A stretch of DNA of 64,000 bases from Escherichia coli (GCF_048403405.1 NZ_CP183131.1); one strand, 5' to 3'. Counted from the stretch's first letter, positions 1,389-16,050 are shown. Numbers and translations: made by a program. The notes: generated from the sequence alone by a model not told the origin.

Positions 1389-1465
1389 GATGCACTCCAA
1401 ATAGTTTGGGGGCGCACCACGTCCCGAACCGGGCGGATGCACCCGGTTTAGGGTTAGTAGATTGC
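1389..1465 (-). promoter_or_regulatory. partial copy (proximal half) of the conserved 121-bp upstream module
   Basis: GGCGCACCACGTCCCGAACCGGGCGGATGC shared with 10066..10186 and 14901..15021, a few substitutions. Confidence 0.6.
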
Positions 1466-1810
1466 TCAAGCTGTTACGCCAGCCTGAGCCTTTATTGCTT
1501 CAAGCACGATCTCTGCTTCCTTGATAGAACCAGTGCTGTACAGCTTATGCAGCACCCGGCCAAGGTTCACAGAGATCTTTTCTTTCACTTGGAGATACTT
1601 GACATAGAAGTCATACAGTTTCTCCGCCTGCTCAAGGTGGGACATGCTCTCAACGGGAATGGTATTCCCTGGATTGCAGTACCACTTTCCGAGCACCTTT
1701 TGTACAAATCCCTCTTTGTCTCCTACGAACTGATTTGTGCCAAACACCCCACTGGTTGGTGAGCGTTGAATAACAGAAATCGGATTCGCAAAGCTGGCAA
1801 GAGTAGTCAT
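1466..1810 (-). CDS. hypothetical protein (114 aa)
   Basis: ORF track 1466..1867; start moved to internal ATG with RBS GGAGCC. Confidence 0.5.
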   Translation of the reverse strand: MTTLASFANPISVIQRSPTSGVFGTNQFVGDKEGFVQKVLGKWYCNPGNTIPVESMSHLEQAEKLYDFYVKYLQVKEKISVNLGRVLHKLYSTGSIKEAEIVLEAIKAQAGVTA

Positions 1811-1878
1811 AGTTGTGGCTCCATGTTTGTCAGGGAACCACCAGCCCGAGGGGCAGTGATCCCCCAAGGGTTATGTAG

Positions 1879-1950
1879 AATGCTGTTTGTTTGGGGAGGC
1901 CAGCTACCTCACTATTCACTCTCGACAGAGAGCAAAATCTTGCTTTCCGA
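1879..1950 (-). promoter_or_regulatory. degenerate copy (distal half) of the conserved upstream module
   Basis: GAATGCTGTTTGTTTGGGGAGGCCAGCTACCTCAC...CAAAATCTTGCTTTCC matches core of 10129..10190. Confidence 0.5.
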
Positions 1951-1959
1951 GGGGCACAA

Positions 1960-1977
1960 ACTTTCACATGTGAAAGT
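1960..1977. promoter_or_regulatory. 18-bp perfect palindrome ACTTTCACATGTGAAAGT (parS-like)
   Basis: Read directly; one of five copies of core CTTTCACATGTGAAAG. Confidence 0.6.
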
Positions 1978-2001
1978 CGATGCCACTGGGAAAGCAGGGG
2001 G

Positions 2002-2355
2002 TTAACCCCCCGCTTTAACCCGCGCTAAGCGGTTTAGGATAGACTTCACGCCTTCCCTTACTCCAGATGGATCGTAACCTGCTTCATCGCAGCAGACCAC
2101 AAATGAGAATGGATGTACCTCATCGGACATCACCCAAGCCATCGTTTCCTGCTTGATTTCACTTCCAGCTCGACCATCAGCAAGGACTCTAAGGCTATGC
2201 CATAAAAGCCCATCACGTAACTGCCTTACCTCATCATCAGTCCATTCAGGCTTTGGCTCAAATGGAATGACTTCTGCGGTCTTCGGCTCTTCATCCAGGA
2301 AGAAAAGCGGCAGCTCAAGCTGGTTTTCCTTCTGGATCATCTTCACTGCATTCAT
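2002..2355 (-). CDS. hypothetical protein (117 aa)
   Basis: ORF track 2002..2421; start moved to MNAVKM with RBS AAAAGGAGTCACC. Confidence 0.5.
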   Translation of the reverse strand: MNAVKMIQKENQLELPLFFLDEEPKTAEVIPFEPKPEWTDDEVRQLRDGLLWHSLRVLADGRAGSEIKQETMAWVMSDEVHPFSFVVCCDEAGYDPSGVREGVKSILNRLARVKAGG

Positions 2356-2423
2356 GGTGACTCCTTTTACGGGCACCATGCCCCCACAGGGGCATGAAGC
2401 CCCCAGTGGGGTTACAGTCATAG

Positions 2424-2615
2424 TTACTTCACGCCTGCCAGTTGAGAATTGATGTTCTCTTCCAGCCAGCCTTGAAGCGATTCAAGGTCACGTTTGTCTT
2501 CCGTATTGCTGGCTTTACGTGCATCTTCCGACACAGCGCTCAACATGGCGTTAGCCTCAGCAAGTGATTCAACATTGTTCCCAGGGAACACAATCGTTTG
2601 ACTGTGATCTTTCAT
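2424..2615 (-). CDS. hypothetical small protein (63 aa)
   Basis: ORF track 2424..2651; RBS AAGGAGAAGACC before internal ATG. Confidence 0.4.
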   Translation of the reverse strand: MKDHSQTIVFPGNNVESLAEANAMLSAVSEDARKASNTEDKRDLESLQGWLEENINSQLAGVK

Positions 2616-2672
2616 GGTCTTCTCCTTTGAGAATGGAGGACCGTCTCCCATCAGGAAGAGCGGCCCCGTGGG

Positions 2673-2948
2673 TTAAAAGTAAAAATCCTCCAGCTCTTCA
2701 TGGTCAGGCTTTCGCTCAACTGGTCGAAGCAACTCAGCTTCATCAGCGAACTCAAGCTCAGGATGAAAAGCAGGATGAAATCCTCGATGCCAGACTGGAC
2801 GGTCATTATCGAGGTCTAAGTAGCAGTGCCTCCCACTGGCTGGGTGATAGCAGTAAAGCCACTGTCTACCACTAACGGTAAACGGCTTCTCTGCACCTCC
2901 ACATGCCGGTACAAGGTTATCTGCTGCTATATGCGCTACAGCATCCAT
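2673..2948 (-). CDS. hypothetical protein with acidic-aromatic C-terminus (..ELEDFYF)
   Basis: ORF track 2673..2996; start moved to ATG after GAGGA; C-terminal tail read from track. Confidence 0.45.
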   Translation of the reverse strand: MDAVAHIAADNLVPACGGAEKPFTVSGRQWLYCYHPASGRHCYLDLDNDRPVWHRGFHPAFHPELEFADEAELLRPVERKPDHEELEDFYF

Positions 2949-2952
2949 AGGA

Positions 2953-3405
2953 TCAGTCCTCATCTTCGTCATCACGAACACAAAGATCACGAGCAACTAT
3001 TTCCGCAGCTATCAACGCATAATCGTTGCCCTGCCAGAACCACCGCTCCGCCAGCTCATAGGCTTCGCTGGAAGGTTCGCCATAACCATGAGCCACCACG
3101 TAATCGTGGAACACTTCATGATCAAATGCCTTGCCATCAGCTTCCATGAACCAACCGACAGGGCACTCCAGAATGCGATGCCTTACGACATCTCGCTCTG
3201 AATACCCCTCTCTGACGGCTTGCTCCAACATTTCCCGCGACATACCAGGAGGAGTGATGATCTCTATGCTGATCCCGTCACTTCCTGCAAGATTGTCCTC
3301 GTATGGAAGACCGGCAAGTGTAAGGTGATTGCGCTTGCACCAGCCGATGGTCCGAAGTATCCGACTTTTGTCAGACTCCCTGGCCGTGTATCGGTTAAGC
3401 TGCAT
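2953..3405 (-). CDS. hypothetical acidic protein (150 aa, C-terminus DDEDED)
   Basis: ORF track 2953..3462; RBS GGAGGTG before MQLNRY. Confidence 0.5.
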   Translation of the reverse strand: MQLNRYTARESDKSRILRTIGWCKRNHLTLAGLPYEDNLAGSDGISIEIITPPGMSREMLEQAVREGYSERDVVRHRILECPVGWFMEADGKAFDHEVFHDYVVAHGYGEPSSEAYELAERWFWQGNDYALIAAEIVARDLCVRDDEDED

Positions 3406-3784
3406 AGCCACCTCCAGCACACTCCCCATCTTCGATTTCACTTCCGAGCTCGACCATTCCAATCAGGTCAAGCTGGGTCATGTCCGAATCCAGAGAGCAG
3501 TCAATTGCTGACTGAATGATGCCTTTGTGGGCCAAGCCTAAAACGGACTTAATAGTCGAAAGCAGAGACTCGGCTTCGCTCTCGATTTGCTCCAGAATGT
3601 CTTTCCATTCCCAGTGCTCAAACGGTTGCCAAACGACCAGATCCTCAGGCTCGTCTCCCCGTTCGACACACTCAGACAAATACTCATAAGCCTTGCACCA
3701 ATTCTCTTGTTGGCCCAGTTCACTGAGCACTAGAGCGGTAGCATGACCGTATGCGATTTGTTCAACTTTGGTATTGATAGACAT
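3395..3784 (-). CDS. hypothetical highly acidic protein (129 aa)
   Basis: ORF track; strong RBS GAGGAGAAACACT before ATG. Confidence 0.55.
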   Translation of the reverse strand: MSINTKVEQIAYGHATALVLSELGQQENWCKAYEYLSECVERGDEPEDLVVWQPFEHWEWKDILEQIESEAESLLSTIKSVLGLAHKGIIQSAIDCSLDSDMTQLDLIGMVELGSEIEDGECAGGGYAA

Positions 3785-3845
3785 AGTGTTTCTCCTCGTA
3801 ATGGATAGAGGAGCCCCACCCGCAGGAAAGGCTCCTCCGGATGGG

Positions 3846-4076
3846 TTAAATTTCCAAGGTCACATCGGTTTTTGCTTTAGCGCAGCAAACCAACACTTCC
3901 CCTTCTTTGACAAATGCGATGGGCGTCTCGTCATAGGCCACTTGACCTTCGAGTAGACGAACCCGGCACATGCCACAAAAGCCACTGCGACAATGCGTTT
4001 CAACAGTGAGGCCTTTGCTTTCGATTTGCGCCAACAGCACATTGTTGCTGGCTTGAAGTTGTACGTTCATGGTCAC
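3846..4076 (-). CDS. 2Fe-2S ferredoxin-like small protein
   Basis: CRSGFCGMC (C-x4-C-x2-C) plus downstream CC; RBS AAAGGAGCG. Confidence 0.6.
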   Translation of the reverse strand: MTMNVQLQASNNVLLAQIESKGLTVETHCRSGFCGMCRVRLLEGQVAYDETPIAFVKEGEVLVCCAKAKTDVTLEI

Positions 4077-4135
4077 GCTCCTTTGTTGTTGATGAGCGCG
4101 ACCAATCCCCTCCGGGATGTCACGCCCCGGTTGGG

Positions 4136-5020
4136 CTACTCAGCAAGTGCATAGACACCTACCTCGATGCGAATAAAGAACCTGGCATCTTGAAGAACTT
4201 GCCTGACCTTTGCTTGCCAGTGGTTGTTCTCTCGATGCTTTGCGTAGGGTTCAATCTCTTTGTAAATCTGCTCCAGCTTCAACGTTTTCCCCTGTAGGGT
4301 TCGGCGTATTGCAGCTTTCCACGTAGTCGAAACCATATTGGTTGCTCGACGGTGTACGGCAGCAAGAAGACAGAGCGATGAGGCAACGTCGTTACGACGA
4401 AACACCAACAGCTTTTCATGGGCGATACGCACCAGCTTCCCGGAATACTGAGTTCGGTCACTCACACAGTTGTGCTGTGTTTTGATGATCTCATCCACCA
4501 GCTTCCCAGGTGCGATACGTTCCACAAGGCTGGACAGGTTGAAATAATCCCCATCGCGCCTCAGGTTTCCCATGAGGATTCCGTAATGCCCTCCTCGCTC
4601 ACAGGCGTCATGAATATTCATAACGGCCAGCTCAAGGGCTTCAACGAACTCAGGCAAATTCATGCGGCTCATATCCCATTTGTTGGGCTCGCCCCACTGC
4701 TTACCTGAATACTGGATCATGTCCCAGTAAGGAGGGTGCCACCAGATCAGGTGTGCAGGCTCTCCGAGGAACGAAAGGAAGTCATCCCGCAACAGGTTGA
4801 ACCCCTGATGCAAGTCTGTCCCTTTGAAACGGACACCAAGTTCATTGGCAACGTCGATGCTAGAGCCACCCCCAACACTTGGGTCTGCCACCAGCCCGTT
4901 CGGCTTTCTCATGTAAGACTCAATGAAGTCTTTAACGATAAAGCCCGAGCAGTTGCCTCGGTACTTGTTGTTTCCGTAAGGCCCCCTGTTTTCGTAGGAG
5001 CATACTGATGATTTGAACAT
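4136..5020 (-). CDS. DNA amino-methyltransferase (N6A/N4C type, motif I before PPY)
   Basis: ADPSVGGGSS (motif I-like) then WWHPPYWD (motif IV PPY); RBS GGAGGA before MFKSS; ORF track 4136..5059. Confidence 0.6.
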   Translation of the reverse strand: MFKSSVCSYENRGPYGNNKYRGNCSGFIVKDFIESYMRKPNGLVADPSVGGGSSIDVANELGVRFKGTDLHQGFNLLRDDFLSFLGEPAHLIWWHPPYWDMIQYSGKQWGEPNKWDMSRMNLPEFVEALELAVMNIHDACERGGHYGILMGNLRRDGDYFNLSSLVERIAPGKLVDEIIKTQHNCVSDRTQYSGKLVRIAHEKLLVFRRNDVASSLCLLAAVHRRATNMVSTTWKAAIRRTLQGKTLKLEQIYKEIEPYAKHRENNHWQAKVRQVLQDARFFIRIEVGVYALAE

Positions 5021-5093
5021 GGCGTCCTCCATCATAGATGGGGCGCACCATGCTCCCATCAGGGGCCGGTTCGCCCCTGGTTAGGGATTAAGA

Positions 5094-5594
5094 TCAAGCG
5101 TTATCTGCATACCACCAGCTAAGGCGATTGCAATCACGAAAGAAGGTTGCTTCATCAGGAGCCTTCATCATGACCACATCACCTTCGCAGTAGGTGCATA
5201 GCTCAAGCGTTGCTTCATTTTTCCAAAAGGCACTGCACCCCGATTCTTGATACACAACCTCCCATTTGGGATGTCGCAAGTACCGATGGAAGAAATCGAG
5301 AGTGTCACCATAAGGGAAGTTGAAGCGCTCCATCACTGAACCATTTTCTGTCAGTTCAGGTTTAACCTTGCCGGTTTTCAAGCGCTTCTTGATGATGCGC
5401 TGAACCCAACGAAGTCGTGCAAACAGCCGATTGGTGTCTTTCTCGTACCACTGGGGATTACGCTTGCTCCAGTAGAGCTTGGCGAAGATTTCCCCGGACA
5501 AATCCTTCATCTGGTTTTCGTTGAGCTCATCAAGAAAACGTCGAGAAGGTTTGTCGTAGTCAAGAACTGCTTCCAAAGCTGATAGGTTTTTCAT
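5094..5594 (-). CDS. hypothetical protein (166 aa)
   Basis: ORF track; RBS AAGGAGTCCCT. Confidence 0.55.
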   Translation of the reverse strand: MKNLSALEAVLDYDKPSRRFLDELNENQMKDLSGEIFAKLYWSKRNPQWYEKDTNRLFARLRWVQRIIKKRLKTGKVKPELTENGSVMERFNFPYGDTLDFFHRYLRHPKWEVVYQESGCSAFWKNEATLELCTYCEGDVVMMKAPDEATFFRDCNRLSWWYADNA

Positions 5595-5684
5595 AGGGAC
5601 TCCTTATTGCGATTGCGGAGCCCCGTCCCCTCAGGGCTATCGGAGCCCCATAGGGTTAATTAGGGTTAATGGTTGAACGGCGAT

Positions 5685-6224
5685 TTATCGAGGGTTGGTG
5701 AATCGAATGGCTTTACCAACGAAATCGGCCATCAGTCGATTCCCAGTAGAGCTGAAATAGCTCTGCCACTCTTTCCAACCACCAACGGATTCCACCGAGC
5801 TTGGAGACTCGAAGATACCCCAGATACGCATTTCACAACCTCGTTGCAACACTCGGTTTACCTGGTCAACCAAGTATTCCTTGTTCTGCAATGAAGAGAG
5901 GTTGCAAGGCATCTGCATGATCAGCTTTTCAGCTTGCTCGAAGTCGATTTTTTCAATCAACCCCGTGCGGGTATCCACAGAGAATGGAACCACCTGTTGA
6001 CCGTGGTTAGACCACAACCAATGGGTGATATAGATCGGATTAACGCCAACTTCCGCTGGCACCAATACGCTGCCGCAAGACCGCAACAGCCAGACCAGAC
6101 GTAAACCATCGAATCGATCCAGAGACTCCACATCGGTAGTGATGTCATCCTGGTAGATTTCAGGCAGCTTATGTTCGGCGGCGAGAGAGATCATTACGGA
6201 TTTGAGATTGTTCAGATGAGACAT
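5685..6224 (-). CDS. hypothetical protein (179 aa)
   Basis: ORF track; RBS AAGGAGCACAC; first gene downstream of a module copy. Confidence 0.55.
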   Translation of the reverse strand: MSHLNNLKSVMISLAAEHKLPEIYQDDITTDVESLDRFDGLRLVWLLRSCGSVLVPAEVGVNPIYITHWLWSNHGQQVVPFSVDTRTGLIEKIDFEQAEKLIMQMPCNLSSLQNKEYLVDQVNRVLQRGCEMRIWGIFESPSSVESVGGWKEWQSYFSSTGNRLMADFVGKAIRFTNPR

Positions 6225-6290
6225 GTGTGCTCCTTAAAGTAACTTGGGCACACAGAGCCTGTCAGGCGCAGTGCGCCCTTAGGCTGAGGT

Positions 6291-6365
6291 TGAATGCTGT
6301 TTGTTTTTGGCGACCAGCTATCGCACGTTTCGCCCTCAGAGAGGACAAAATTCACTTTCTCAGCA
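6291..6365 (-). promoter_or_regulatory. degenerate copy (distal half) of the conserved upstream module
   Basis: GAATGCTGTTTGTTTTTGGCGACCAGCTATCGCACGTTTCGCC nearly identical to core at 10129..10165. Confidence 0.55.
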
Positions 6366-6488
6366 ACCCTCAATGAAGGCCTCTGAGAAAGTGGGAGGGT
6401 ATTCCCTCCTCACTTTGATTGTTCCACGAGAGCTGTGTGAACAGGAACGCTCAAACTGCCCTTTTCGGGTGCAAAGCTCAAAGACGCA

Positions 6489-6824
6489 TCAACTGCCCCG
6501 TCTTTTCAGTTCTTCGACCAGATGTTCAGGCACCTTACTCGCAGTACAGGCCAGCAATACATCGAGGCCTACCGGCTTGTGAAAGCGCTTATTTGACCAG
6601 GAATCGCCAACTGATGACTTTGCCCAGTCGATTGCTTGCCCAAGACTGTGGAACTGCCGCCTGCCTGTGTATCCCATACGACTATCCAAAGTAACACCCT
6701 GGAACAGTCTCCAGTACATCGGAGGAATGCGCTTAGCAAGCAGTAAAAAAGGCGTCTCCGGCACTGTAGCCCTTCTACCTTTGTTCCGATGATACAAATC
6801 CAAAGATGAATGGAATTGGTTCAT
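6489..6824 (-). CDS. hypothetical protein (111 aa)
   Basis: ORF track; RBS GGAGAG. Confidence 0.45.
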   Translation of the reverse strand: MNQFHSSLDLYHRNKGRRATVPETPFLLLAKRIPPMYWRLFQGVTLDSRMGYTGRRQFHSLGQAIDWAKSSVGDSWSNKRFHKPVGLDVLLACTASKVPEHLVEELKRRGS

Positions 6825-6833
6825 AGACTCTCC

Positions 6834-6867
6834 AAATAAAAACGGCCACCCCCGAAGGGATAGCCGT
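6834..6867 (-). terminator. intrinsic terminator after vWA gene
   Basis: Minus-sense ACGGCUAUCCC-UUCG-GGGGUGGCCGU followed by UUUUUAUUU. Confidence 0.6.
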
Positions 6868-6885
6868 TTGTCGTTTCACTTCCTG

Positions 6886-8682
6886 TTAAGCTGCAAAAGC
6901 AGTCAATGACCGCTCCATCAACTTAAACAGTGTGCGTTGCAGAGCTGCCGCATCATCAATGACAATGTTCTTTTGGAACAGTCCTGACACTGCGGTAGTC
7001 TCTACCCCTATGCCGATCACCTCAACATCGCTTCGTTCACAGAGGTCAATCACTGAGCGACATGCCGGGGCGCTTTGAGGCTGCCCGTCAGTCACTACGA
7101 TCAACATTTTTCGCTCTTCACGGGTCTTGGTGAGTTCAAAAGCTGCATACCACATAGCTTCCGCCATAGGCGTACCGCCAGTTGCTTTGAACCCAAACCG
7201 ACCGGCCCGATTCTGAACCGTATCTCCATGCTTCACGACACTGAACACTGGCTGGTTCCGGTTGCCACCAAAAAAGGTGACTGCCGGGTTTACGCCGGGT
7301 ATTGCTTCCAGAGCCATCGAAATAGCCAAGGACGCTTCCCGCGCAATGTCTTGACGCTCCTTTCCATTGGCGGCCTTGTAGGCCATCGAGGAGCTCATAT
7401 CAACCAGGATGTGAACCGCCGTATTAGGGCGTTTCTTGGCTTCCGGCTTGAGGAATACGCGGGTATCACCCGTCACTACACGATGTAGTTTCCGAGCATC
7501 CACACGCTTCCCTGATCGTTGGTTACGGTGAGCAACTCGCTGGCTGGCCTGGACCAATCCGTAGAGCTGCGTTCTTATCTTTGAAGTGGTGCTCTTCACA
7601 TCCCCTACCAGGCTTTTGCCAACAGCAGGGTTGTCCTGGGTGTTCACAGCAGAGCGAACAGTCATATAGCTACTGTCCCCCTTATCTTGAGCCACCCGGT
7701 TGAGCTCGGCTTTAAGTGCATCATGCGCGTCACCACGCAAATCACCGGCACCGGCATTCAGAACCTGCTGGAGCATTTTGGCCGCGTCTTGTTTCGCCGC
7801 GTCAGAATTGCCACCAGCCTGGCTTTGTCCTGCCTTGCTGCCACCATCAGTATCCGACTTGCCTTGGTCGCCCTGTCCTTTCGGATCAGATTTCCCGTTA
7901 GCATCGTCTTGCTTCTGGTCTTTACCTTGCTGATCACCACCATTGGCATCAGGCCCTTGGTTTTGATCGTTACCACTTCCGCCCTGACTGTTCTGAGGTT
8001 GGTTGCCACCAGCATTCTGCTGGTTGTTACCATCCTGACCATTCAGGGGCTTTTGCTCTTCTTTCTCCTTTTCCTCCTCGATCATCTTGATGATTTGGTC
8101 GGCCAAGGATGTCACCTCTGCGGTTGACTTAGTGTTCACAGCCTTACGCAGTAAAGCGTTCAGCCGAACAACAACACCCTGAGGGAACACGCGCTCGAAT
8201 ACGGGGGTAGCCGAATCGAGATAGGGTTGAAGGACGGATTGCCCTACAGCCTTGGTTTGCAACCAGTACAAACAAAACCCTGTCAGAATGGAGGCAGGGG
8301 CCTCTTTGTCTGTGACGTGCTCGTAATGACCAGCTTGAGCCATATAGCGAGCAACCTCATTCAGGGTCTGCGACGTACCGGGGAAGAGTTCCATCATGGC
8401 CCGTTCTATGCGGCAGTCCTCCAAAACGTTGGACAACTCAGCATGAAGACCTCTGCGGCGCTCAACACCAAAGTCCGTAAACCGGACATGGGCTGCTTCA
8501 TGGGCCAAATACCCCCAGACAGCATCCATGTGAGGATAGTCGTCGGGGATATTCGGAACCACGATGGTCTTACCATCGGTGTATGCGTCATCGTTACCGA
8601 TGGCGACTTTGACACCGAGTTTTTCACCATAGGCTGCGGCCACGATTGGTAGAGCGCTGTAAATGGTGCGTTTTTTGGACAT
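6886..8682 (-). CDS. von Willebrand factor A domain protein (CobT-like) with long Q/G/D-rich disordered linker
   Basis: C-terminal MIDAS-like DMSSSM in a vWA-like segment; low-complexity middle; RBS CAGGAGAAAAGAT. Confidence 0.75.
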   Translation of the reverse strand: MSKKRTIYSALPIVAAAYGEKLGVKVAIGNDDAYTDGKTIVVPNIPDDYPHMDAVWGYLAHEAAHVRFTDFGVERRRGLHAELSNVLEDCRIERAMMELFPGTSQTLNEVARYMAQAGHYEHVTDKEAPASILTGFCLYWLQTKAVGQSVLQPYLDSATPVFERVFPQGVVVRLNALLRKAVNTKSTAEVTSLADQIIKMIEEEKEKEEQKPLNGQDGNNQQNAGGNQPQNSQGGSGNDQNQGPDANGGDQQGKDQKQDDANGKSDPKGQGDQGKSDTDGGSKAGQSQAGGNSDAAKQDAAKMLQQVLNAGAGDLRGDAHDALKAELNRVAQDKGDSSYMTVRSAVNTQDNPAVGKSLVGDVKSTTSKIRTQLYGLVQASQRVAHRNQRSGKRVDARKLHRVVTGDTRVFLKPEAKKRPNTAVHILVDMSSSMAYKAANGKERQDIAREASLAISMALEAIPGVNPAVTFFGGNRNQPVFSVVKHGDTVQNRAGRFGFKATGGTPMAEAMWYAAFELTKTREERKMLIVVTDGQPQSAPACRSVIDLCERSDVEVIGIGVETTAVSGLFQKNIVIDDAAALQRTLFKLMERSLTAFAA

Positions 8683-8766
8683 ATCTTTTCTCCTGGTAGG
8701 GAAGGAGATAGTCCACCCCTGGAGGGAATGGCTATCCCCTCCGGGTCGGTTTAGTTGAAGTGACTA

Positions 8767-10044: not shown

Positions 10045-10065
10045 GATGCACTCCAAAAAGTTGGG

Positions 10066-10186
10066 GGCGCACCACGTCCCGAACCGGGCGGATGCGCCCG
10101 GTTGGGCTAGTAAATTAACGTTAATTTGCTGTTTGTTTTTGGCGACCAGCTATCGCACTTTTCGCTCTCCGAAGAGAACAAAATCT
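10066..10186 (-). repeat. conserved 121-bp upstream module, copy 1 (identical to 14901..15021)
   Basis: 121 bp identical by direct reading; contains hairpin CCGGGCG-N4-CGCCCGG and palindrome AAATTAACGTTAATTT. Confidence 0.85.
10112..10127. promoter_or_regulatory. 16-bp perfect palindrome AAATTAACGTTAATTT (operator-like) inside module copy 1
   Basis: Read directly. Confidence 0.5.
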
Positions 10187-10243
10187 TGCTTTCCGTTGGA
10201 GACTCCCAGAATCCCCAAGGGAAAGCGGGGGAAAATCCCCCAC

Positions 10244-11254
10244 TCACCAGTAGAACGTCTCTACTTCTTCCGGCAAATCATCAAGAGGAGCAAGCACGTC
10301 CTCATCAACAATGTACCGTGGCTTCACAGAGCCAGTAACCGTTACACGGCACCGCTCTGATGACTTCTCTCTGTACTGGTCAACATCCTCAGGCTTCACG
10401 CCTGACGCCTTATCAGCCAACAGCTTTTTGTAGTCTACCCGGCCAGCCGCTTTGTATCTCGTTACCATCACACCGCAGTAGTCGGCATGGAAGTATTCCC
10501 CCATGAGGGACTTCATGGTGTCGAGATGAGGCTTTTGCCTTTCTTGAAGCTCAGACAGTCGCTGTTTCAGCTCCTGAATCTCAGCATCATAGAGGCGGTA
10601 TTCCTCAGCAGCAGCAATCCAACGGTTGACCTCTTCACCTTGCGGTATGTACAGGTCTCTCTCTGGATCTTTGTCGGGCTCCTTCTTGTCTACTACCTGT
10701 TGCCAGAACTTTTTAGCCTCGGCCAAGATTTCTTGAATCATGGCTTCGTCTCGGAGTATTGGAAACTCCTGAATCTGACCTTCAAAGTAGAAGACTAACC
10801 AGCCTTGCTTGGCCCCCGTTACCAGGAGCTGGTGTTGCACCTGCGGGTAATAAAGCTGGTATGCCTTGCTGTTTGCTTTCTCAGCACAAACATCTTCCCA
10901 GACAGTCGCACTCGGGCTTTTCAGCTCGACGGGCTCCCCGTTATCTCTCAGGCCATCCAGGGAGGCCCTCATGAGCGGGTATTGAACCGATTCGACACAG
11001 GCGGGGAGCAGCATGTCATCATACTTCTCCTCGAAAGCGCGTCTTGCAGCATCTTCGTTTTCTATCCCCCGGCGAACCAGCGGATTAAGACTCAGATCGA
11101 CTTCACGCGCATACCCAGTCTTCTCGGCCCACAGTCTCCATCGTGTTTTGTACGGAGACCGATTGAGCAGGATAGCGGCGTCAGTGGCTGTTACACCTTG
11201 ACGCCGCCAATCAAGCCAATCTTCCTCTCGTTGCGATAGGTTGACTATTTTCAT
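10244..11254 (-). CDS. exo: alkaline exonuclease (lambda Exo / YqaJ-like) of ssb-bet-exo module; C-terminus ..EEVETFYW
   Basis: Size and gene order after bet as in SXT/IncC elements; RBS TGGAGAGAGG. Confidence 0.75.
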   Translation of the reverse strand: MKIVNLSQREEDWLDWRRQGVTATDAAILLNRSPYKTRWRLWAEKTGYAREVDLSLNPLVRRGIENEDAARRAFEEKYDDMLLPACVESVQYPLMRASLDGLRDNGEPVELKSPSATVWEDVCAEKANSKAYQLYYPQVQHQLLVTGAKQGWLVFYFEGQIQEFPILRDEAMIQEILAEAKKFWQQVVDKKEPDKDPERDLYIPQGEEVNRWIAAAEEYRLYDAEIQELKQRLSELQERQKPHLDTMKSLMGEYFHADYCGVMVTRYKAAGRVDYKKLLADKASGVKPEDVDQYREKSSERCRVTVTGSVKPRYIVDEDVLAPLDDLPEEVETFYW

Positions 11255-11316
11255 GGACCTCTCTCCAATGGTTAGGAGGGAGATCTCCCCCAGCGGGGGA
11301 GTCCCCCCCGTTGGGG

Positions 11317-12306
11317 TTAGTAGTAACTGCCTTCCGCGCCCTCCTCTTCTGTAACAGGGATCATGTCCTCGTCACTCAAAGGCGGCATTTCTTCGGCACC
11401 AGGTTCAGCATTTGCAGAACCACCAGCGGCGGACTCTTGCTCGTGCGCTTCCTGGTAGTCAGGTTTCGGAGGCTCCATTTGATCCATCTCCTTGTCACGA
11501 AGGAATTGAGTCGCATATTGCAGTTCCGAACCTTCATACCGTCCCTTCACATACTCATGCGCCGCAGACCATGCGTTTTCAGCAATGGCGCGATTTGCGA
11601 GTTTGGTTAGGATCGGGTCAAGCTCTTTGTGCTCAATAGCCAAAGGCTCTTGGCTTTGAACTTGAGATGGTGAAGGGAGATTGGCAATAGCCGGGTTAAT
11701 GGCCGATGCCTGCTCCATTTCACGGATGCGTTCAGCTTCATCCTGGTCATAAATACCAGAGAAACCAAATGCGACACGAGAACACTGGATCAGCGACTTG
11801 TGCCGGAGTTGACGCTTGGTGTGCGTTTGCCAGGGGCCATCAACAGTGTAAGCACCATTGCGACCTTGACCCTGAAACGGTTCACGGTACACCTCATCAA
11901 TGAACTCCTTGATGCGGATAGGGCGAGATCTGTCCTTACGGTAAATCACGCATTCAATCCACTCAGGGCAGTCAACTTTCGCCCCCTGCATTCTGACCAT
12001 CTTGTCCGAATACACGAACTCGACGCCATCATACTGGGGATGCTCGTTGATGATGCGGCTCCAACCATCAACACCTACTACCGGAATGATCCCATTTTGC
12101 TTGTCAGGAAACGCATAGATTTCCCGAGTGAAAGGGTTCAAACCGTACTGTTCAGCCACGATCAGGAGCGTCATCATCTGCTCATCGGTCGGGGCACTTC
12201 CATCTCGCTGCTTGAATGCGGTCGCCTTCAAAGTTTCATAGAACTTTCGGGTGTCCACGCCAAACCGGCTTGCGATACGGGTTACAAGAGATTTGTTATC
12301 AGACAT
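11317..12306 (-). CDS. bet: single-strand annealing protein (Bet/RecT-type); C-terminus ..EEEGAEGSYY
   Basis: ORF track 11317..12348; start moved to MSDNK after RBS GGAGA; position between ssb and exo. Confidence 0.75.
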   Translation of the reverse strand: MSDNKSLVTRIASRFGVDTRKFYETLKATAFKQRDGSAPTDEQMMTLLIVAEQYGLNPFTREIYAFPDKQNGIIPVVGVDGWSRIINEHPQYDGVEFVYSDKMVRMQGAKVDCPEWIECVIYRKDRSRPIRIKEFIDEVYREPFQGQGRNGAYTVDGPWQTHTKRQLRHKSLIQCSRVAFGFSGIYDQDEAERIREMEQASAINPAIANLPSPSQVQSQEPLAIEHKELDPILTKLANRAIAENAWSAAHEYVKGRYEGSELQYATQFLRDKEMDQMEPPKPDYQEAHEQESAAGGSANAEPGAEEMPPLSDEDMIPVTEEEGAEGSYY

Positions 12307-12400
12307 GGTGTTTCTCCAATTCACGAATGAACGGTTTGAGGACACCATGACCCCCTCGGGGCATGAGTGCCCCCGTGGGGTTTAGTAAGAGTTGGCGGTG

Positions 12401-12928
12401 TTACCCGCCAGCCAAGTGGTGCAGCCGCATGAACGGGATGTCATCATCCCAGCCATCAGGAGCGGGACCATAGCCTCCGCCCATACCACCTTGCGGTGCT
12501 GATTGCTGCACAGGAGCAGATTGCGTACCGGCTCCTGTACGTTGCCCTTTTTGGGGCGCTGCACGTTGAGAGTTGTCCTGAGGTGCATTTCCACGACCAC
12601 CAAGCATCTGCATTTCAACGCAGTGTACTTCGGTGGTGTAGCGCTCGATTTGTTGGCTGTCAGTCCACTTCCGGGTGCGGTTGCTCCCTTCGAGATAGAC
12701 TTGGGAGCCCTTTTTCAGGTACTCACCAGCGACTTCTGCCAAACGACCTTTAAGCACAATACGGTGCCACTCAGTATGCTCTCTTTGCTCGCCAGACTGC
12801 TTATCGCGCCACGTATCCGTTGTTGCAACGTTGAAGTTGGCAACGGCAGTTCCGCTTGGCATGTAGCGAATTTCCGGGTCAGAACCGAGATTACCGACCA
12901 GAATTACTTTGTTGACGCCTTTAGACAT
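12401..12928 (-). CDS. ssb: single-stranded DNA-binding protein with 9-aa extension after DDDIPF
   Basis: N-terminus [15 protein letters not shown].., Gly-rich linker, DDDIPF then MRLHHLAGG before stop (verified by manual translation). Confidence 0.9.
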
Positions 12929-12991
12929 CATGACCTCCAAGTTATTTGGAGAGGGCCAACGCCCCTTTCGGGGAGCAAGCCCCCGTAAGGG

Positions 12992-13900
12992 TTAAAAAAA
13001 GTGATCCTCTTGTTCGGCGTCGATCTCTGCCAGGCGAATCAGCTCAGATACAAGGCCAAGCCTTTCTGCATCTGCTCTTACTTCGTCGTAGCTGAAACCA
13101 AACCGTTCAATGAGGGGTTTTAGTGAATCAAAACGCTCGTAGTCGAAGGTATCACCCTGTTCATCACAGAATGCCACCAGCGGCTTCTCTACGTTTGAAA
13201 AGTCATCCGCGAAACGCTGTTGCAGGTAAACCAACATCAGCAGGGGTTTGTGACCATGTTCCGGGCGGAGTTCACCAGCGCCTTCCAGCGTAGCTGGATG
13301 GATAGTGTTTTCGCCTAGTCCAGTGCTAACCCCAAGCTCATAACCGCTGTCAGTACGCATCAGCACACTGGGTAGCAAGTCATTTGAGCCTTCGCTCCGA
13401 GCAACCTCAAAGCCGATTAAACCGGCTCCTTTGGCAAAAACCCCAGCAACAAAACCTTTGAAGAGGTTTATGTCACCTGGAGGTAACTCAGAGGGCGGAG
13501 ATAACAGCCAGTTGAGAGATCCCAAGCTGGCTGTTTGTCCGGCTGAAACATTCCCCCCTTCCAGCACCGTCTGTGTCTCTGCGTTTACCAGCACCTCATC
13601 CAGAAAGGTGTACCCCTGGCTGAGAAACTGTGACACATACTGGCTTTCTTTGTCCTTGTAGGACATTGGGATCGTGTCTGGGCCGTTAGCTTCAAAAGGT
13701 CCTTCGAGCTTTGTCTCAGACCAATTTTCAGCTTTCCCATCAGTGACGGTTCGGCGTAGCTCGACCATCGTGAATTGGCCTGGCTCCGAGGAGCTGGGCT
13801 CCCGGAGCAACTTGTAGCCAATGAAGACTTCTATTGTGGTTTCGTCATTGCCCCACTCTTTAGCAGTGTAACGACGGCACAAACAGTCATTTTTCTTCAT
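12992..13900 (-). CDS. hypothetical protein (302 aa) ending ..AEQEDHFF
   Basis: ORF track; RBS AAGGGG; 10-nt gap after the AAA+ gene. Confidence 0.55.
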   Translation of the reverse strand: MKKNDCLCRRYTAKEWGNDETTIEVFIGYKLLREPSSSEPGQFTMVELRRTVTDGKAENWSETKLEGPFEANGPDTIPMSYKDKESQYVSQFLSQGYTFLDEVLVNAETQTVLEGGNVSAGQTASLGSLNWLLSPPSELPPGDINLFKGFVAGVFAKGAGLIGFEVARSEGSNDLLPSVLMRTDSGYELGVSTGLGENTIHPATLEGAGELRPEHGHKPLLMLVYLQQRFADDFSNVEKPLVAFCDEQGDTFDYERFDSLKPLIERFGFSYDEVRADAERLGLVSELIRLAEIDAEQEDHFF

Positions 13901-13910
13901 GCGTCACCCC

Positions 13911-14879
13911 TTAGCGCCATTGGTCCCCGAACACATCCTTCGCAACACGCAGGATGGCTTCACGCTCCTCTTTGGCCGCACGGATAAGCAGAGCTTGATC
14001 CAGGGCGTATTCAAGAGCATTTGGGGCACCACGGAACGCTAGAGACAGTTTCGCCCAACGCACCAACGTCCGAGTGGACATGGTGACGCTGATCTGACCA
14101 TCTTCACCGTTTTCGCCAAGAAACAGTTTGCGGACCTGATTAGCAATCCGAACCATTCCCTTCCGCACATTTTCCGGAAGTTTCGGAGTAACACGGCCAA
14201 GAATGCTGAGTTCAGCTTCCTCATCCGCATACCCTACTTTGGTGAAACGATAGCGATCCATAGCTGCGAGGTTCTGCATCATCACCCCCTGGTACAAACC
14301 AGAAGCATCACCGGACCCCGTAGAGTTACCAGTAACGACCACACGAAACATCGGGTGCGGCTTGATGATTTCCCCGCCATTCTGAGCGATCACAAGGGGA
14401 CGCCCTTCAAGGACATCGTTGAGACCAGCCAGCTCGGCAGGGTCGGCCAAATCCACCTCGTTGATGAGGAGCAGATGACCTTCACGCATAGCGACTGCCA
14501 GAGGTCCATACATGAACTTCATGACAGGTGGTTGACCAGGCTTTTCCGCGACCAGAGCGTGATGTCCAATCAGATCTGTCAGCTCCATCCGCCCGTGGGC
14601 AGTGATTTGCTGAACAGGCCAGTTGAGACGACCAGCGATCTCGGTGATACCTGAGGTTTTGCCAGACCCGGTAGGGCCGGTTACGAACAATGCGTCACCG
14701 CCAGGCTCTTTGAGATAGGCCAAGACCTCTCGCAGAAACTCTTTGCGGAAAACGTAGTTGGTATCAGTGGCAGGGATGAAAGGGTTTGAACCGTCAGCGT
14801 AGCCGATGGCCGTTACCTTCTCCGGAATGCTGGGCATACCGAAAACCTTGCTTACTGAGAATTGAGAGTATTGAGACAT
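13911..14879 (-). CDS. AAA+ ATPase (CobS/MoxR-like)
   Basis: Walker A GPTGSGKT, Walker B LLLINEVD; RBS TAGGAGCGCACCT. Confidence 0.8.
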   Translation of the reverse strand: MSQYSQFSVSKVFGMPSIPEKVTAIGYADGSNPFIPATDTNYVFRKEFLREVLAYLKEPGGDALFVTGPTGSGKTSGITEIAGRLNWPVQQITAHGRMELTDLIGHHALVAEKPGQPPVMKFMYGPLAVAMREGHLLLINEVDLADPAELAGLNDVLEGRPLVIAQNGGEIIKPHPMFRVVVTGNSTGSGDASGLYQGVMMQNLAAMDRYRFTKVGYADEEAELSILGRVTPKLPENVRKGMVRIANQVRKLFLGENGEDGQISVTMSTRTLVRWAKLSLAFRGAPNALEYALDQALLIRAAKEEREAILRVAKDVFGDQWR

Positions 14880-14900
14880 AGGTGCGCTCCTATTGTGACA

Positions 14901-15021
14901 GGCGCACCACGTCCCGAACCGGGCGGATGCGCCCGGTTGGGCTAGTAAATTAACGTTAATTTGCTGTTTGTTTTTGGCGACCAGCTATCGCACTTTTCGC
15001 TCTCCGAAGAGAACAAAATCT
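14901..15021 (-). repeat. conserved 121-bp upstream module, copy 2
   Basis: Identical to 10066..10186. Confidence 0.85.
14947..14962. promoter_or_regulatory. palindrome AAATTAACGTTAATTT inside module copy 2
   Basis: Read directly. Confidence 0.5.
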
Positions 15022-15098
15022 GCTTACTGATGGTATTCACCATGAGTAAGAAGACTTTTAAGGAGCGAGGAGAGTAGCCTCTCCTGGAGGCCACTCCC

Positions 15099-15284
15099 TC
15101 AATGGACGAACATCACCACATCGTCGTTTTGACCAATGACCCCGGTTTCTTTGGCCCACTTCACTGCTTCACTGTGCGCCTGGTAGGAGCTGGAATACAG
15201 TTTCGGATCAAATTTCACCTCGCGTCCATCAGCCAGATAGATGATGCCTGCGTGATCGTCGTAAACATGAAGATTCTGTTGCAT
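15099..15284 (-). CDS. hypothetical small protein (61 aa)
   Basis: ORF track 15099..15350; RBS AGGGGGA before internal ATG. Confidence 0.4.
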   Translation of the reverse strand: MQQNLHVYDDHAGIIYLADGREVKFDPKLYSSSYQAHSEAVKWAKETGVIGQNDDVVMFVH

Positions 15285-15400
15285 TCGACATTCCCCCTGT
15301 AGCTTGTCGTCAAAGCCAACTGACACCAGAAGACTTTGAGGACAAGCCACAGAGGCTTGACCAGAAAGAGAGGGGTTGCCCCCTCCCTTTGCGTTGACTA

Positions 15401-15493
15401 TCAGCAGTAACCGAACGATTCAGCGATTCTCACGAAAGGACGAGAGATTGCCCAACCAGTAGGGATACACAAAGCGATGATAGCGATTTCCAT
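15401..15493 (-). CDS. small hydrophobic peptide (30 aa, MEIAIIALCIPTGWAISRPFVRIAESFGYC)
   Basis: Not in ORF track (under 60 aa); found manually; RBS TAGGAGCAACATC identical in style to the neighbouring gene. Confidence 0.35.
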   Translation of the reverse strand: MEIAIIALCIPTGWAISRPFVRIAESFGYC

Positions 15494-15507
15494 GATGTTG
15501 CTCCTAA

Positions 15508-15547
15508 GCAAAAAGGGGCAACATCCCCGTCGGGGTATGGTTGCCCC
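15508..15547 (-). terminator. terminator-like hairpin with U-tract in the leader of the small peptide gene
   Basis: Minus-sense GGGGCAAC..(CCCC-GAC-GGGG)..GUUGCCCC UUUUUGC. Confidence 0.5.
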
Positions 15548-15587
15548 GATGGGTTTGAAAGTGTCGAAGATTACTCAGCGACAGTTA

Positions 15588-15908
15588 TTACCAAACAAGT
15601 TCCTTGCCCTTACGAAGGTAAGTCGGGATTTCGAGATAATCCCAGTCAGGTTCTTGTTTAGCGACTTCTTGAACTTGAGTTACCTCAGGTTCAACGACTG
15701 CTTTGGCTTGTTCAGCCTTGGCAGCACGTTCTTTGATGACGGCCTGTACAGACCGCATTGCAGGAACTGCGAATTTGTTCCAAAGGAACAAACCGATACG
15801 CTGGAACACTTTAGCGAGAACGATGAAGGAAAAAGCAAATGCCTTCGCGCCTACGTACAGTGCGCCCAGAGATGCAAGCAGAACTACAATGAAAGTGATG
15901 ATGTGCAT
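15588..15908 (-). CDS. small membrane protein (106 aa, N-terminal TM helix)
   Basis: Hydrophobic N-terminus; RBS TAGGAGCAACACC. Confidence 0.5.
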   Translation of the reverse strand: MHIITFIVVLLASLGALYVGAKAFAFSFIVLAKVFQRIGLFLWNKFAVPAMRSVQAVIKERAAKAEQAKAVVEPEVTQVQEVAKQEPDWDYLEIPTYLRKGKELVW

Positions 15909-15923
15909 GGTGTTGCTCCTATG

Positions 15924-15966
15924 TAAAAAAACAGGGGCAACACCCGAAAACCGGGAGAAGCCCCCG
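15924..15966 (-). terminator. terminator-like nested hairpin with U7 in the leader of the membrane protein gene
   Basis: Minus-sense GGGGC..CCCGG-UUUU-CGGG..GCCCC UGUUUUUUU. Confidence 0.5.
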
Positions 15967-16003
15967 GCTTGGGGTTAAGTAATGCCATACGGCATAAGAC
16001 TAG

Positions 16004-16050
16004 ATGCTGTTTGTTTTCGGAGACCAGCTATCTCACCTATAGCCGCAGAG
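16004..16050 (-). promoter_or_regulatory. degenerate copy (distal half) of the conserved upstream module
   Basis: AGATGCTGTTTGTTTTCGGAGACCAGCTATCTCAC. Confidence 0.45.

Follow-up and report, generated by a model that had tools for sequence, protein, structure and literature searches.

A conserved core that appears to be a structured RNA leader in the repeats dividing the accessory gene array of an IncC plasmid

Repeated non-coding modules standing in one orientation ahead of anti-restriction, ssb and establishment genes are known from conjugative plasmids as CUP and Frpo/ssi elements. CUP elements, in the leading region of IncN pKM101, are promoter-plus-operator units of several hundred bp, and Frpo, in the leading regions of F and IncI plasmids, is a single-stranded-DNA promoter of about 300 nt. 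The repeat core described here is likewise placed in one orientation before successive plasmid genes, but it is only about 63 nt long, promoterless and transcribed through. Lambda nut boxA/boxB, HK022 put, rrn boxB-boxA and ops/JUMPstart (RfaH) are, like the core, short conserved elements in the leader or interior of long operons. The core resembles boxB plus boxA in that a hairpin, its loop conserved and its stem covarying, is joined to a conserved single-stranded part, and many of its copies carry the GGTAGC of ops, but none of these leader antitermination signals matches it in sequence. The ops element (GGCGGTAGnnTG), whose G5 and T6 are invariant and specifically read on the non-template strand, was rejected as an identity: the equivalent of G5 is A in four of the five copies of the window (the whole 64-kb stretch of DNA analysed). 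Across the family all four bases occur at this position, each time complementary to the base opposite in the stem, and such covariation is incompatible with RfaH read-out. The proposed topology also recalls H-type pseudoknots of the preQ1-I type (a stem of 4-5 bp, a loop pairing with a 3' tail, an A/C-rich connecting loop of about 10 nt, about 30 nt in total), from which it differs by the lack of any Rfam match even at E<=1 and of an expression platform overlapping the tail. Unlike metabolite riboswitches, the motif precedes genes functionally unrelated to each other.

The closest described repeats are the rptI of IncC plasmids. In the portions of Roy et al. 2020 (NAR 48:8815; PMC7498323) considered here, rptI are intergenic repeats of the backbone around hde (vcrx089-093), present in at least six copies, the longest of 155 bp and the others partial copies of it, and conserved as a family across IncC. 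Bet/Exo uses them to repair CRISPR (Cas3) breaks, with published deletions of 23,702 bp (rptIb-rptIf) and 14,076 bp (rptIb-rptIe), and a 32-bp piece of rptIb is 100% identical in SGI1. In those portions rptI figures only as DNA homology for Bet/Exo single-strand annealing, and there is no mention of covarying hairpins, of an invariant loop and tail, of a placement where AcaCD transcripts begin or of a spread beyond IncC.

The window is an IncC (IncA/C2) plasmid backbone, in which every gene between 1 and 16 kb is on the minus strand. The original prediction placed two full and several half copies of one module in this array, and all were recovered at their predicted places. The features considered are the following:
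16105..16119, minus strand: AcaCD box of the divergent acaB/vcrx087 promoters, 1 mismatch to TGCCCAAAWWGGGCA, outside the repeat
16003..16065, minus strand: copy E of the leader motif, covariance-model hit of 72.5 bits, promoter-proximal in the 5' UTR of vcrx087
14880..15098, minus strand: full module D, intergenic, before vcrx089, containing the motif core 14960-15024
10045..10243, minus strand: full module C, intergenic, before vcrx094 (DUF3150), containing the motif core 10125-10189
6840..6869, minus strand: intrinsic terminator, a 13-pair stem then TTATTT, 3' of the VWA gene
6457..6471, minus strand: AcaCD box of Pvcrx098, 3 mismatches to the core TGCCCAAAWWGGGCA, outside the repeat
6293..6356, minus strand: copy B of the leader motif, covariance-model hit of 80.7 bits, in the 5' UTR of vcrx098
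5021..5093, minus strand: degenerate proximal-type copy, before vcrx100 (gene 4136-5020)
1879..1943, minus strand: copy A of the leader motif, covariance-model hit of 72.5 bits, before vcrx107 (gene 1466-1810)
1389..1465, minus strand: proximal-half copy, before vcrx108 (gene 1086-1388)

What the prediction called half copies falls into two unlike elements. The distal half is a structured leader core, the proximal half a set of hairpins enclosing a ribosome-binding site. On the coding strand the core reads HP1, a hairpin of variable sequence, an A-rich linker, HP2, a short hairpin of 4-5 bp with the near-invariant loop UAGCUGG, then 2-3 nt and the near-invariant CA-rich tail AAACAAACAGCA. Its five copies in the window (E, D, C, B and A) are homologous, as predicted. 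The pattern TAGCTGG-N7-AAACAAACAGCA was matched with 0-1 mismatches at 1881, 6295, 10127, 14962 and 16005 on the minus strand, against 0.00 matches expected from 100 dinucleotide-preserving shuffles. The covariance model returned the same five copies at 72-81 bits and none further at E<=1; the core is absent from the rest of the 64 kb. Just outside the window, at least two further copies lie upstream of vcrx112 and vcrx120. The vcrx114 leader holds a degenerate one. Copy E stands where it was predicted, but its end moves from 16050 to about 16065, and HP1 is present there with a different stem sequence; its parts are HP1 AGUCGC/GCGGCU, HP2 GAGA-UAGCUGG-UCUC and the tail AAAACAAACAGCA. Gene starts, predicted 70-130 bp from the copies, lie 70-96 nt after the motif tail in the window, and the median distance from motif to start codon is 78 nt over 130 distinct copies from all loci.

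The full modules add further elements around the core. Module C opens at its 5' end with a GC hairpin and GCUUUCC (10222-10241); a variable hairpin, GGAAAGC, the core, a palindrome (10112-10127) and the proximal half (10045-10106) follow in that order. Its 202-nt RNA folds with an MFE of -92.4 kcal/mol (z = -6.47). In module D, AAATTAACGTTAATTT forms the palindrome (14947-14962) and the proximal half spans 14880-14941; the two modules are 100% identical over 121 nt (10066-10186 and 14901-15021). Two hairpins also stand 5' of copy A, a GC hairpin with GCUUUCC at about 1997-2016 and, at 1941-1996, a long variable one. The proximal half stands apart from the core as an ordinary feature of the array, made of hairpins around the ribosome-binding site and start codon. 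It occurs in three copies, 1406-1448 being 98% identical to 10061-10103 and 88% to 14896-14938, plus the degenerate one at 5021..5093, which keeps the two-hairpin layout with compensatory stem changes. The copy at 1389..1465 consists of a CCC-hairpin-GGG element and a hairpin around the Shine-Dalgarno sequence and start codon.

This family is almost certainly the published rptI, an identification made by deletion sizes and the 32-bp SGI1 identity, not by sequence. One longest repeat with partial copies is what we see: modules D and C are full, copies E, B and A are partial, and proximal copies occur besides. Gene coordinates of pVCR94 and motif-to-start distances put D about 23,703 bp from the copy ahead of vcrx120, and the starts of vcrx089 and vcrx108 lie 14,077 bp apart in pVCR94 coordinates; both values agree with the published deletions within 1-2 bp. 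Exactly 32 nt, corresponding to HP2 plus tail (GTGCGATAGCTGGTCGCCAAAAACAAACAGCA), are found at 100% identity in the S018 leader of an SGI1-type record. Module D is thus probably rptIb and the proximal copy 1389..1465 probably rptIe. Since the family matches rptI, the repeat as DNA is already known. The RecHS site of IncA/C (Hegyi et al. 2017) was also considered and rejected: it has a different locus and gene context, the modules here lying between co-directional genes.

The copies do split the array into units, as had been proposed, and operon starts called by Rockhopper in pVCR94 coincide with them. Comparison of gene content across relatives gave conserved blocks and lineage-specific genes bounded by copies, and the leader core looks like the head of each block of plasmid accessory (anti-defence and recombination) genes. 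Among the first genes of blocks, vcrx089 encodes an AAA ATPase and opens the hde operon (vcrx089-093), and vcrx094 encodes a DUF3150 protein. The intrinsic terminator at 6840..6869 is the single strong one on the coding strand of the array and is likely the end of the Pvcrx087 transcription unit.

The proposal that the copies act as a common control element did not hold up in the sense of a promoter or operator. Only two window copies, E and B, have an AcaCD box 5' of them (at 40-110 nt); no box was found inside the repeat or near copies D, C and A in the window. The positions of both boxes agree with Table S3 of Carraro et al. 2014 (PMC4207636), and the acaB-vcrx087 promoter pair is named in PMC8373056. 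The published start site at 65081-83 corresponds to about 16060-62, placing it 4-9 nt before HP1 of copy E, and for copy B the AcaCD-dependent start is expected about 60-130 nt 5' of the motif. An AcaCD-like box and a -10 element, constantly spaced, directly precede the motif in 12 promoter-proximal copies representing 10 lineages, SGI1 included. Three to four copies in this plasmid and SGI1 are directly 3' of AcaCD boxes, and the AcaCD regulon (PMC4207636) includes all genes behind copies, but the box is a different sequence, most copies are box-less, and tra promoters have a box and no motif. In published expression data, vcrx087-vcrx125 read hundreds to thousands on induction and about 0 once acaCD is deleted, and genes after box-less copies stay at 0-5 without AcaCD. 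Expression neither rises nor falls consistently from one side of a copy to the other. No sigma-70-like promoter was found in any copy, and RT-PCR detected a single mRNA from Pvcrx087 to vcrx094, through two copies (PMC7498323). Because the copies contain no promoter or operator and mRNA spans two of them, they are transcribed leader or intercistronic sequence. A same-strand Shine-Dalgarno sequence and ORF follow the motif in 83% of the 130 distinct copies, compared to 31% in the control orientation.

Covariation was examined on 54 distinct copies fetched without use of the motif, from plasmid relatives and loci of DUF3150 proteins. Cells of the alignment are paired in 93% of cases overall and 99.5% in HP2, and 8 of the 10 pairs show double changes, a number reached by none of 500 shuffles; controls with slid positions pair at 39-59%. 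RNAalifold independently recovers both hairpins, and the loop-adjacent pair of HP2 occurs as G-C, A-U, U-A and C-G. G.U pairs outnumber A.C pairs (93 vs 24), an excess that fits folding of the sense strand. The copy E leader folds with z = -4.9, HP2 being replaced by an alternative pairing in its single-sequence fold. The tail CAGC can pair with the loop GCUG, which would give a small pseudoknot of the H type whose third loop, rich in A, is 10 nt long in 119 of 126 copies. This helix is paired in 98.6% of cells; two of its four pairs never vary, three compensated variants occur (ACUG/CAGU at L029:9857 and L156:23626, GCUA/UAGC at L029:4152) besides several G.U pairs, and three Paraglaciecola copies have an A.C mismatch.

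The core is kept in IncA, pAQU-like, Aeromonas, Edwardsiella, Photobacterium, Alcanivorax, Paraglaciecola and Azomonas elements and in SGI1, and also in more than 120 metagenome contigs, where the invariance of loop and tail is partly by construction, the search pattern having fixed them. HP2 plus tail of copy A are identical over 30 nt to copies of the Alcanivorax-type locus L027, whose DUF3150 protein is only 59% identical; in L027 a DndC/PAPS-reductase-like gene with its own copy lies between exo and DUF3150. In Photobacterium pPGC22 copies are present, with none before the AAA ATPase or DUF3150 genes, so some blocks can do without the motif. Rfam 15 gave no family at gathering threshold in the window, no relevant match at E<=1 over 1-17 kb, and none in four related loci (families including PreQ1, nut/put-type and tRNA-like), and ARAGORN found no tRNA or tmRNA. 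The core was not flagged as an intrinsic terminator, an A/C-rich tail and not a U-run following HP2; the upstream GC hairpins, followed by GCUUUCC, have a poor U-tract. On these comparisons the core appears to be an uncatalogued, strongly conserved structured RNA.

From sequence and published transcripts, our tentative leading reading, given slightly less than an even chance, is that the distal half acts in cis as a structured RNA leader and would keep long accessory operons expressed. The motif is transcribed at the extreme 5' end of AcaCD-activated operons (vcrx087, vcrx098, vcrx114 in degenerate form, SGI1 S018) and recurs within accessory operons ahead of each gene sub-block. Since loop and tail stay constant while the proteins are only about 55-60% identical and the hosts span several orders, their partner may belong to the conserved host machinery (RNA polymerase, ribosome, Hfq or RNase E) and not be an element-specific protein. 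The version that we prefer is 5'-end protection and definition of sub-operon mRNAs, because in every lineage HP1 follows the start site by 4-9 nt, at a set distance from the -10. A U-run before HP1 resembles an RNase E site in 57% of copies (9% in background), and cleavage there is doubtful because the U-run is predicted to pair with the A-rich linker.

Processive antitermination, set against 5'-end protection, is about an equal possibility for the mechanism; as a full account of the repeats we consider it rather unlikely. The motif RNA, alone (put-like) or with a factor (nut/N-like, LoaP-like), would modify the transcribing RNA polymerase, which would then pass GC hairpins and long untranslated gaps, copies being renewed every 1-5 kb because cleavage would remove the RNA tether. 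Several features are consistent with it. The core packs two hairpins into about 65 nt, and its invariant part suits a conserved host target. The motif stands in each accessory-operon leader and returns behind every terminator-like GC hairpin that carries GCUUUCC. Expression extends over more than 10 kb from one AcaCD promoter, and the sole strong coding-strand terminator is at the unit's end. Few convincing intrinsic terminators lie within units, however, so the need is not evident; nut and put sites are not so strictly close to the start site, and the first gene 3' of copy E, vcrx087, encodes a membrane protein, not an N-like factor.

It is less probable that the repeat is primarily a DNA element, its RNA structure incidental: dispersed homology, perhaps with Chi-like pause sites, on which a RecT-type annealing protein and exonuclease would rescue broken plasmids and reshuffle blocks. 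Bet/Exo did repair Cas3 breaks at exactly rptI, and palindromes were proposed to slow Exo (PMC7498323). The motif travels with RecT-family recombinases paired with a YqaJ-type or RecE-type exonuclease, copies bound gene blocks, and the identity of modules C and D suggests gene conversion. Homology alone, however, needs neither a constant loop and tail at about 55-60% protein identity nor compensatory stem changes, and it leaves unexplained the fixed position after the -10 and start site, the constant distance of about 78 nt to the start codon, the strict sense orientation and the G.U excess. Recombination was moreover seen with only 7 identical nt in the considered portions of Roy et al. 2020 (PMC7498323), so no special sequence is needed.

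A post-transcriptional regulator site, bound by an Hfq/sRNA pair or an element-encoded RNA-binding protein as a joint translation switch of the blocks' first genes, seems to us somewhat more doubtful again. It would account for the constant spacing of about 60-100 nt between motif and start codon, where the ribosome-binding site is sequestered in a hairpin, and the 32 nt shared with the SGI1 S018 leader would be expected if SGI1 taps the same regulator. Hfq binds A-R-N triplets, and the tail sequence has two or three of them. The 64-kb window, however, holds no sequence complementary to the motif, we identified no candidate protein or trans-acting partner, and the near-invariance of the site is not what co-evolution with an element-encoded partner would lead one to expect. 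Finally, a promoter or operator, the literal sense of the original prediction, is very improbable, even though copies precede blocks at Rockhopper operon starts and an operator could be seen in the perfect 16-bp palindrome shared by C, D and the vcrx120 copy: sigma-70-like sites are depleted in the copies' region (3 found vs 11.7 expected), AcaCD motifs lie outside the copies, genes after box-less copies are silent without AcaCD, copies E and B are downstream of the start site, and a dimer-binding operator would show the reverse of the conserved loop and covarying arms seen here.

Returning to the structured RNA leader, its job would be to keep long, horizontally mobile operons expressed over their whole length. 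As DNA, the same copies (rptI) are annealed by the element's RecT-type protein and exonuclease pair, so that the blocks between copies are deleted and, plausibly, swapped.

Over bases 1-20,000 the window shows 100% identity with many IncC (IncA/C2) conjugative plasmids, with 957 matching PLSDB records, and it runs in the reverse of pVCR94 numbering. From 15908 down to 1 every gene lies on the minus strand, from vcrx087 through dcm (vcrx109); the hde operon within this array (vcrx089-093) comprises an AAA ATPase gene, vcrx090, ssb, bet and exo. Repeat families were recovered by a repeat search of the window. The original prediction held that half-copies of one module punctuate the array, and such half-copies do exist. 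The distal core, TAGCTGG-N7-AAACAAACAGCA, has five minus-strand matches (1881, 6295, 10127, 14962 and 16005; copies A to E, from left to right) against 0.00 expected from shuffles, with no sixth match anywhere in the 64 kb. Proximal-half copies were found at 1389-1465, 10045-10106 and 14880-14941, with a degenerate one at 5021-5093. Copies C and D belong to full modules, identical at 100% over 121 nt (10066-10186 and 14901-15021). In related IncC records more copies lie beyond the left end of the window, before vcrx112 and vcrx120, and the vcrx114 leader holds a degenerate one. The main features are:

17865-20675, minus strand: traN
16202-16843, plus strand: acaB
16105-16119: AcaCD box upstream of copy E
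6457-6471: AcaCD box upstream of copy B
12932-12991, minus strand: example of the shared gap design
12307-12400, minus strand: example of the shared gap design
11255-11316, minus strand: example of the shared gap design
4071-4135, minus strand: example of the shared gap design
2356-2423, minus strand: example of the shared gap design

Some details of the array were recorded separately. An unannotated ORF of 30 codons (MEIAIIALCIPTGWAISRPFVRIAESFGYC; 15401-15493, minus strand) lies between vcrx087 and vcrx088. Over 30 nt the ribosome-binding region of this ORF (15485-15514) shares 83% identity with the vcrx087 one (15900-15929); the ORF is probably a real gene for a small membrane protein. On its coding strand the array has a single strong intrinsic terminator (6840-6869, minus strand), which follows the VWA gene; a small gene separates it from the next AcaCD promoter. 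The two 121-nt repeats are direct and bracket the hde operon exactly, 4,835 bp apart; annealing between them would remove the annealing genes themselves. Between the halves of the full modules lies a perfect 16-bp palindrome, AAATTAACGTTAATTT (10112-10127 and 14947-14962), which may serve for protein binding or form an A-U hairpin; a pAQU-like plasmid (L003, around 15625) has the version CAATTAACGTTAATTG. The vcrx120 copy varies among IncC plasmids: pKPHS3 has the full core (L005, 20010-20074), and in pPM154 (L004, 19630-19703) a clean deletion has taken the 3' half of the first hairpin, the second hairpin and the tail, leaving the 5' flank and the palindrome (19688-19703).

The repeat itself appears to be already known as DNA. 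In Roy et al. 2020 (PMC7498323), rptIa to rptIf are IncC-conserved intergenic repeats, rptIb being the longest (155 bp) and the others partial copies of it; Cas3 breaks are repaired by Bet/Exo single-strand annealing at rptI, with 9-24 kb deleted. Module D lies about 23,703 bp from the vcrx120 copy, compared with 23,702 bp for the published rptIb-rptIf deletion, and the vcrx089 start lies 14,077 bp from the vcrx108 start, compared with 14,076 bp for rptIb-rptIe. The 32-bp rptIb segment reported there as 100% identical in SGI1 is exactly the second hairpin plus tail, in the S018 leader. From these two sizes and this segment, rather than from a base-by-base comparison, we infer that the window repeats are the rptI family. 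The other deletion sizes (10,310, 9,268 and 14,003 bp) gave no clean fit to motif copies when rptIa, rptIc and rptId were placed. The RecHS recombination hot spot (Hegyi 2017) is a different locus. What appears to be new is the reading of the repeat as a leader RNA that covaries, is widely conserved and has no Rfam entry. In the literature we found no earlier RNA-level description beyond the mention by Roy et al. of a structure that sequesters the RBS ahead of vcrx089.

On the coding strand the distal core reads as two hairpins joined by an A-rich linker. The stem of the first hairpin (HP1), of at least 6 base pairs, varies by copy (GUUCUC/GAGAGC, GUCCUC/GAGGGC, GCUCUC/GAGAGU, AGUCGC/GCGGCU). 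The second (HP2) presents the loop UAGCUGG on a stem GCGA/UCGC, GAGA/UCUC or GAGG/CCUC, and is followed after 2-3 nt by the tail AAACAAACAGCA. In the folds of internal copies a U-run 5' of HP1 pairs with the linker and extends HP1; upstream of these copies stand a GC hairpin, then GCUUUCC, a variable hairpin and GGAAAGC pairing back onto GCUUUCC. For the entire 202-nt gap ahead of vcrx094 the predicted fold has -92.4 kcal/mol (z = -6.5), and the vcrx087 leader gives z = -4.9. The loop GCUG is complementary to the tail CAGC across an A/C-rich spacer of 10 nt in 119/126 copies. The four proposed loop-tail pairs hold in 98.6% of cells, and compensated variants occur: ACUG/CAGU in the Paraglaciecola locus (L029:9857) and in Photobacterium (L156:23626), and GCUA/UAGC in the former (L029:4152). 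This helix includes several G.U pairs, and an A.C mismatch in three Paraglaciecola copies. Together these data are suggestive of a loop-tail pseudoknot.

Covariation was followed with a covariance model built from 20 copies. It found 6-10 copies in each locus, without exception on the coding strand, in IncA, Aeromonas pKAM339_1, pAQU-like pVPH1, an Edwardsiella plasmid, Alcanivorax and 'Rhodospirillaceae' contigs, a Paraglaciecola MAG and Azomonas, the last five loci having been fetched through the DUF3150 protein and not through the motif. Among 54 distinct sequences 93% of cells are paired (99.5% in HP2), with double changes at 8 of the 10 pairs; none of 500 shuffles reached the observed values, and slid controls gave 39-59% pairing. 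RNAalifold, run independently, gave the same two hairpins. The loop-adjacent pair of HP2 occurs as G-C, A-U, U-A and C-G when the metagenome loci (a pattern scan, at least 120 stretches) are included; in that set the invariance of loop and tail is by construction, because the search pattern fixed both, so that the unbiased evidence is that of the protein-fetched and synteny-fetched loci. There are more G.U than A.C pairs (93 vs 24), as expected for the sense strand. HP2 and tail of copy A share 30 identical nt with copies of the Alcanivorax-type locus (L027), where the adjacent DUF3150 protein is 59% identical. Photobacterium pPGC22, a more distant syntenic plasmid, has three copies, and a lambda-type bet locus used as negative control has no motif. 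A scan of viral contigs with a 17-base pattern gave 17 single matches; only one (L007) scored with the covariance model, and the other 16 look like chance. We conclude that the distal core is a transcribed, structured, sense-strand element. It had no match to a known RNA family, in Rfam at gathering or E-value thresholds or with ARAGORN. An RfaH ops site was a tempting identity because many copies read GCGGTAGC, and was rejected as the key G covaries; mimicry of a tRNA D-arm or anticodon-arm by HP2, noticed by eye from AGCUGG, was left without support.

The proximal half is a different thing. Nearly every array gap (1009-16201, minus strand) shows two features, the stems of which differ between gaps and stay complementary: a short GC hairpin of the form (A)ACCC-N2-3-hairpin-N2-3-GGG, and a second hairpin, formed by perfect pairing of the 5-9 nt ahead of the AUG with a segment further upstream, which leaves the Shine-Dalgarno in or near the loop. 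A structure of this kind, sequestering the RBS of vcrx089, is noted in PMC7498323. This design is independent of the repeat. Three of these translation-initiation regions are near-identical and were the source of the impression of proximal half-copies.

AcaCD boxes were searched with the motif of PMC4207636. An AcaCD operator was the initial guess for the repeat, and was dropped, since the boxes are distinct from the repeat and precede only copies E and B. The vcrx087 primary start, published at 65081-83 (XRN-1/RppH protocol), maps to about 16060-62, 4-9 nt ahead of the first hairpin of copy E. A sigma-70 scan found no site within any copy, and sigma-70-like matches are depleted over 1-17000 (3 found, 11.7 +/- 3.2 expected from shuffles); neither by eye nor by scan did the module contain a sigma-70, extended -10 or sigma-54 promoter. 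An AcaCD-independent promoter is excluded by expression data: in Dataset S1, vcrx087 to vcrx125 each stand at about 0-5 in the acaCD deletion and at hundreds to thousands with AcaCD induced; this holds too for the genes that follow copies D, C and A, which have no box. In PMC7498323, RT-PCR primed in vcrx094 places vcrx087, vcrx089 and bet on one transcript; with the AcaCD-dependence, this means that transcription from Pvcrx087 runs through copies D and C. Rockhopper nonetheless calls a new "operon" at every copy (087, 089, 094, 098, 107, 112, 120). In the tra region good AcaCD matches (at most 2 mismatches) occur at 20727, 27765, 33451, 37729, 38400, 46110 and 56276, all on the minus strand, presumably the known traN, dsbC, vcrx076, traV, traL and traI-side promoters; the leader motif follows none of the seven.

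The position of the motif is constant. In 12 promoter-proximal copies from ten lineages (SGI1 S018 and vcrx114 included) it directly follows an AcaCD-like box and -10 element at constant spacing. Downstream on the same strand, 83% of 130 distinct copies have a Shine-Dalgarno and an ORF of at least 50 aa (median 78 nt), against 31% in the control orientation; the start falls in the 60-99 nt bins for 78 of the 108 copies with such an ORF. We conclude that the motif lies at the 5' ends of the accessory transcripts driven by AcaCD and ahead of internal blocks. A crude gene-order comparison found one set of blocks, in one order, shared by the lineages, with a copy at the head of each block: vcrx087-088; AAA-vcrx090-(ssb)-bet-exo; DUF3150-VWA; the vcrx098 block; and the vcrx107 block. 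Genes specific to a lineage either close a block at its 3' end, directly ahead of the next copy, or form whole copy-bounded blocks; in the Alcanivorax-type locus a 375-aa DndC/PAPS-reductase-like gene with its own copy stands between exo and DUF3150, a slot other than that of the IncC PAPS-reductase-like gene. In divergent metagenome contigs the motif precedes RecE/RecT pairs and primase-like genes. Gene blocks are thus bounded by copies across lineages, and the predicted picture of modular units therefore holds descriptively. As an observation apart, the SGI1 S018 unit (SGI1-type record L034, OX345320.1, 7690-8206) mirrors the whole vcrx087 unit: AcaCD box, -10 element, leader motif with an HP1 stem of its own, and a small protein whose N-terminal membrane segment resembles the one in Vcrx087.

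We infer that the motif keeps these long operons expressed, its near-invariant loop and tail contacting a conserved host component. The favoured version is that it would protect the 5' ends of sub-operon mRNAs and define them, because its nearness to the start site is conserved so strictly. Processive antitermination carries nearly the same weight. A lambda-N-like factor was sought in vcrx087, right after the first copy; this is a membrane protein. A pure DNA homology role is rated lower, as homology alone calls for no compensatory stem changes. DNA copies of the motif do recombine, and the block pattern with the data of Roy et al. suggests that they are also recombination joints. Also rated lower are a post-transcriptional regulator site, no antisense partner of loop or tail being found within the window, and a literal promoter or operator, the downstream genes being silent without AcaCD. 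Beyond 5'-end protection, a wider proposal, which we hold to be possible but rather unlikely as a whole, is a novel class of leader RNA with a pseudoknot, common in MOBH-type conjugative plasmids, ICEs and the islands that live off them. It would bind RNA polymerase or the ribosome as a conserved host machine and render whole anti-defence/establishment gene arrays read-through-proof, its ~30-nt invariant DNA serving also as a crossover site at which the RecT/exonuclease pair of the element itself would delete, insert and exchange motif-headed blocks. If this crossover role were true, it would be an integron-like cassette system with single-strand annealing in place of an integrase.

Whatever its mechanism, the motif makes a clean and testable candidate for an RNA family that Rfam lacks. 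IncC plasmids and SGI1 are important vehicles of multidrug resistance, and the genes behind the repeats include the hde operon, for plasmid survival of restriction and CRISPR on entry into a new host. Should expression of these genes need the motif as a leader RNA, it would be a single near-invariant target common to many elements and hosts, and the SGI1 copy would be a further plug of the island into plasmid circuitry. If the copies are also recombination joints, this would explain the loss and exchange of accessory gene blocks in the superfamily.
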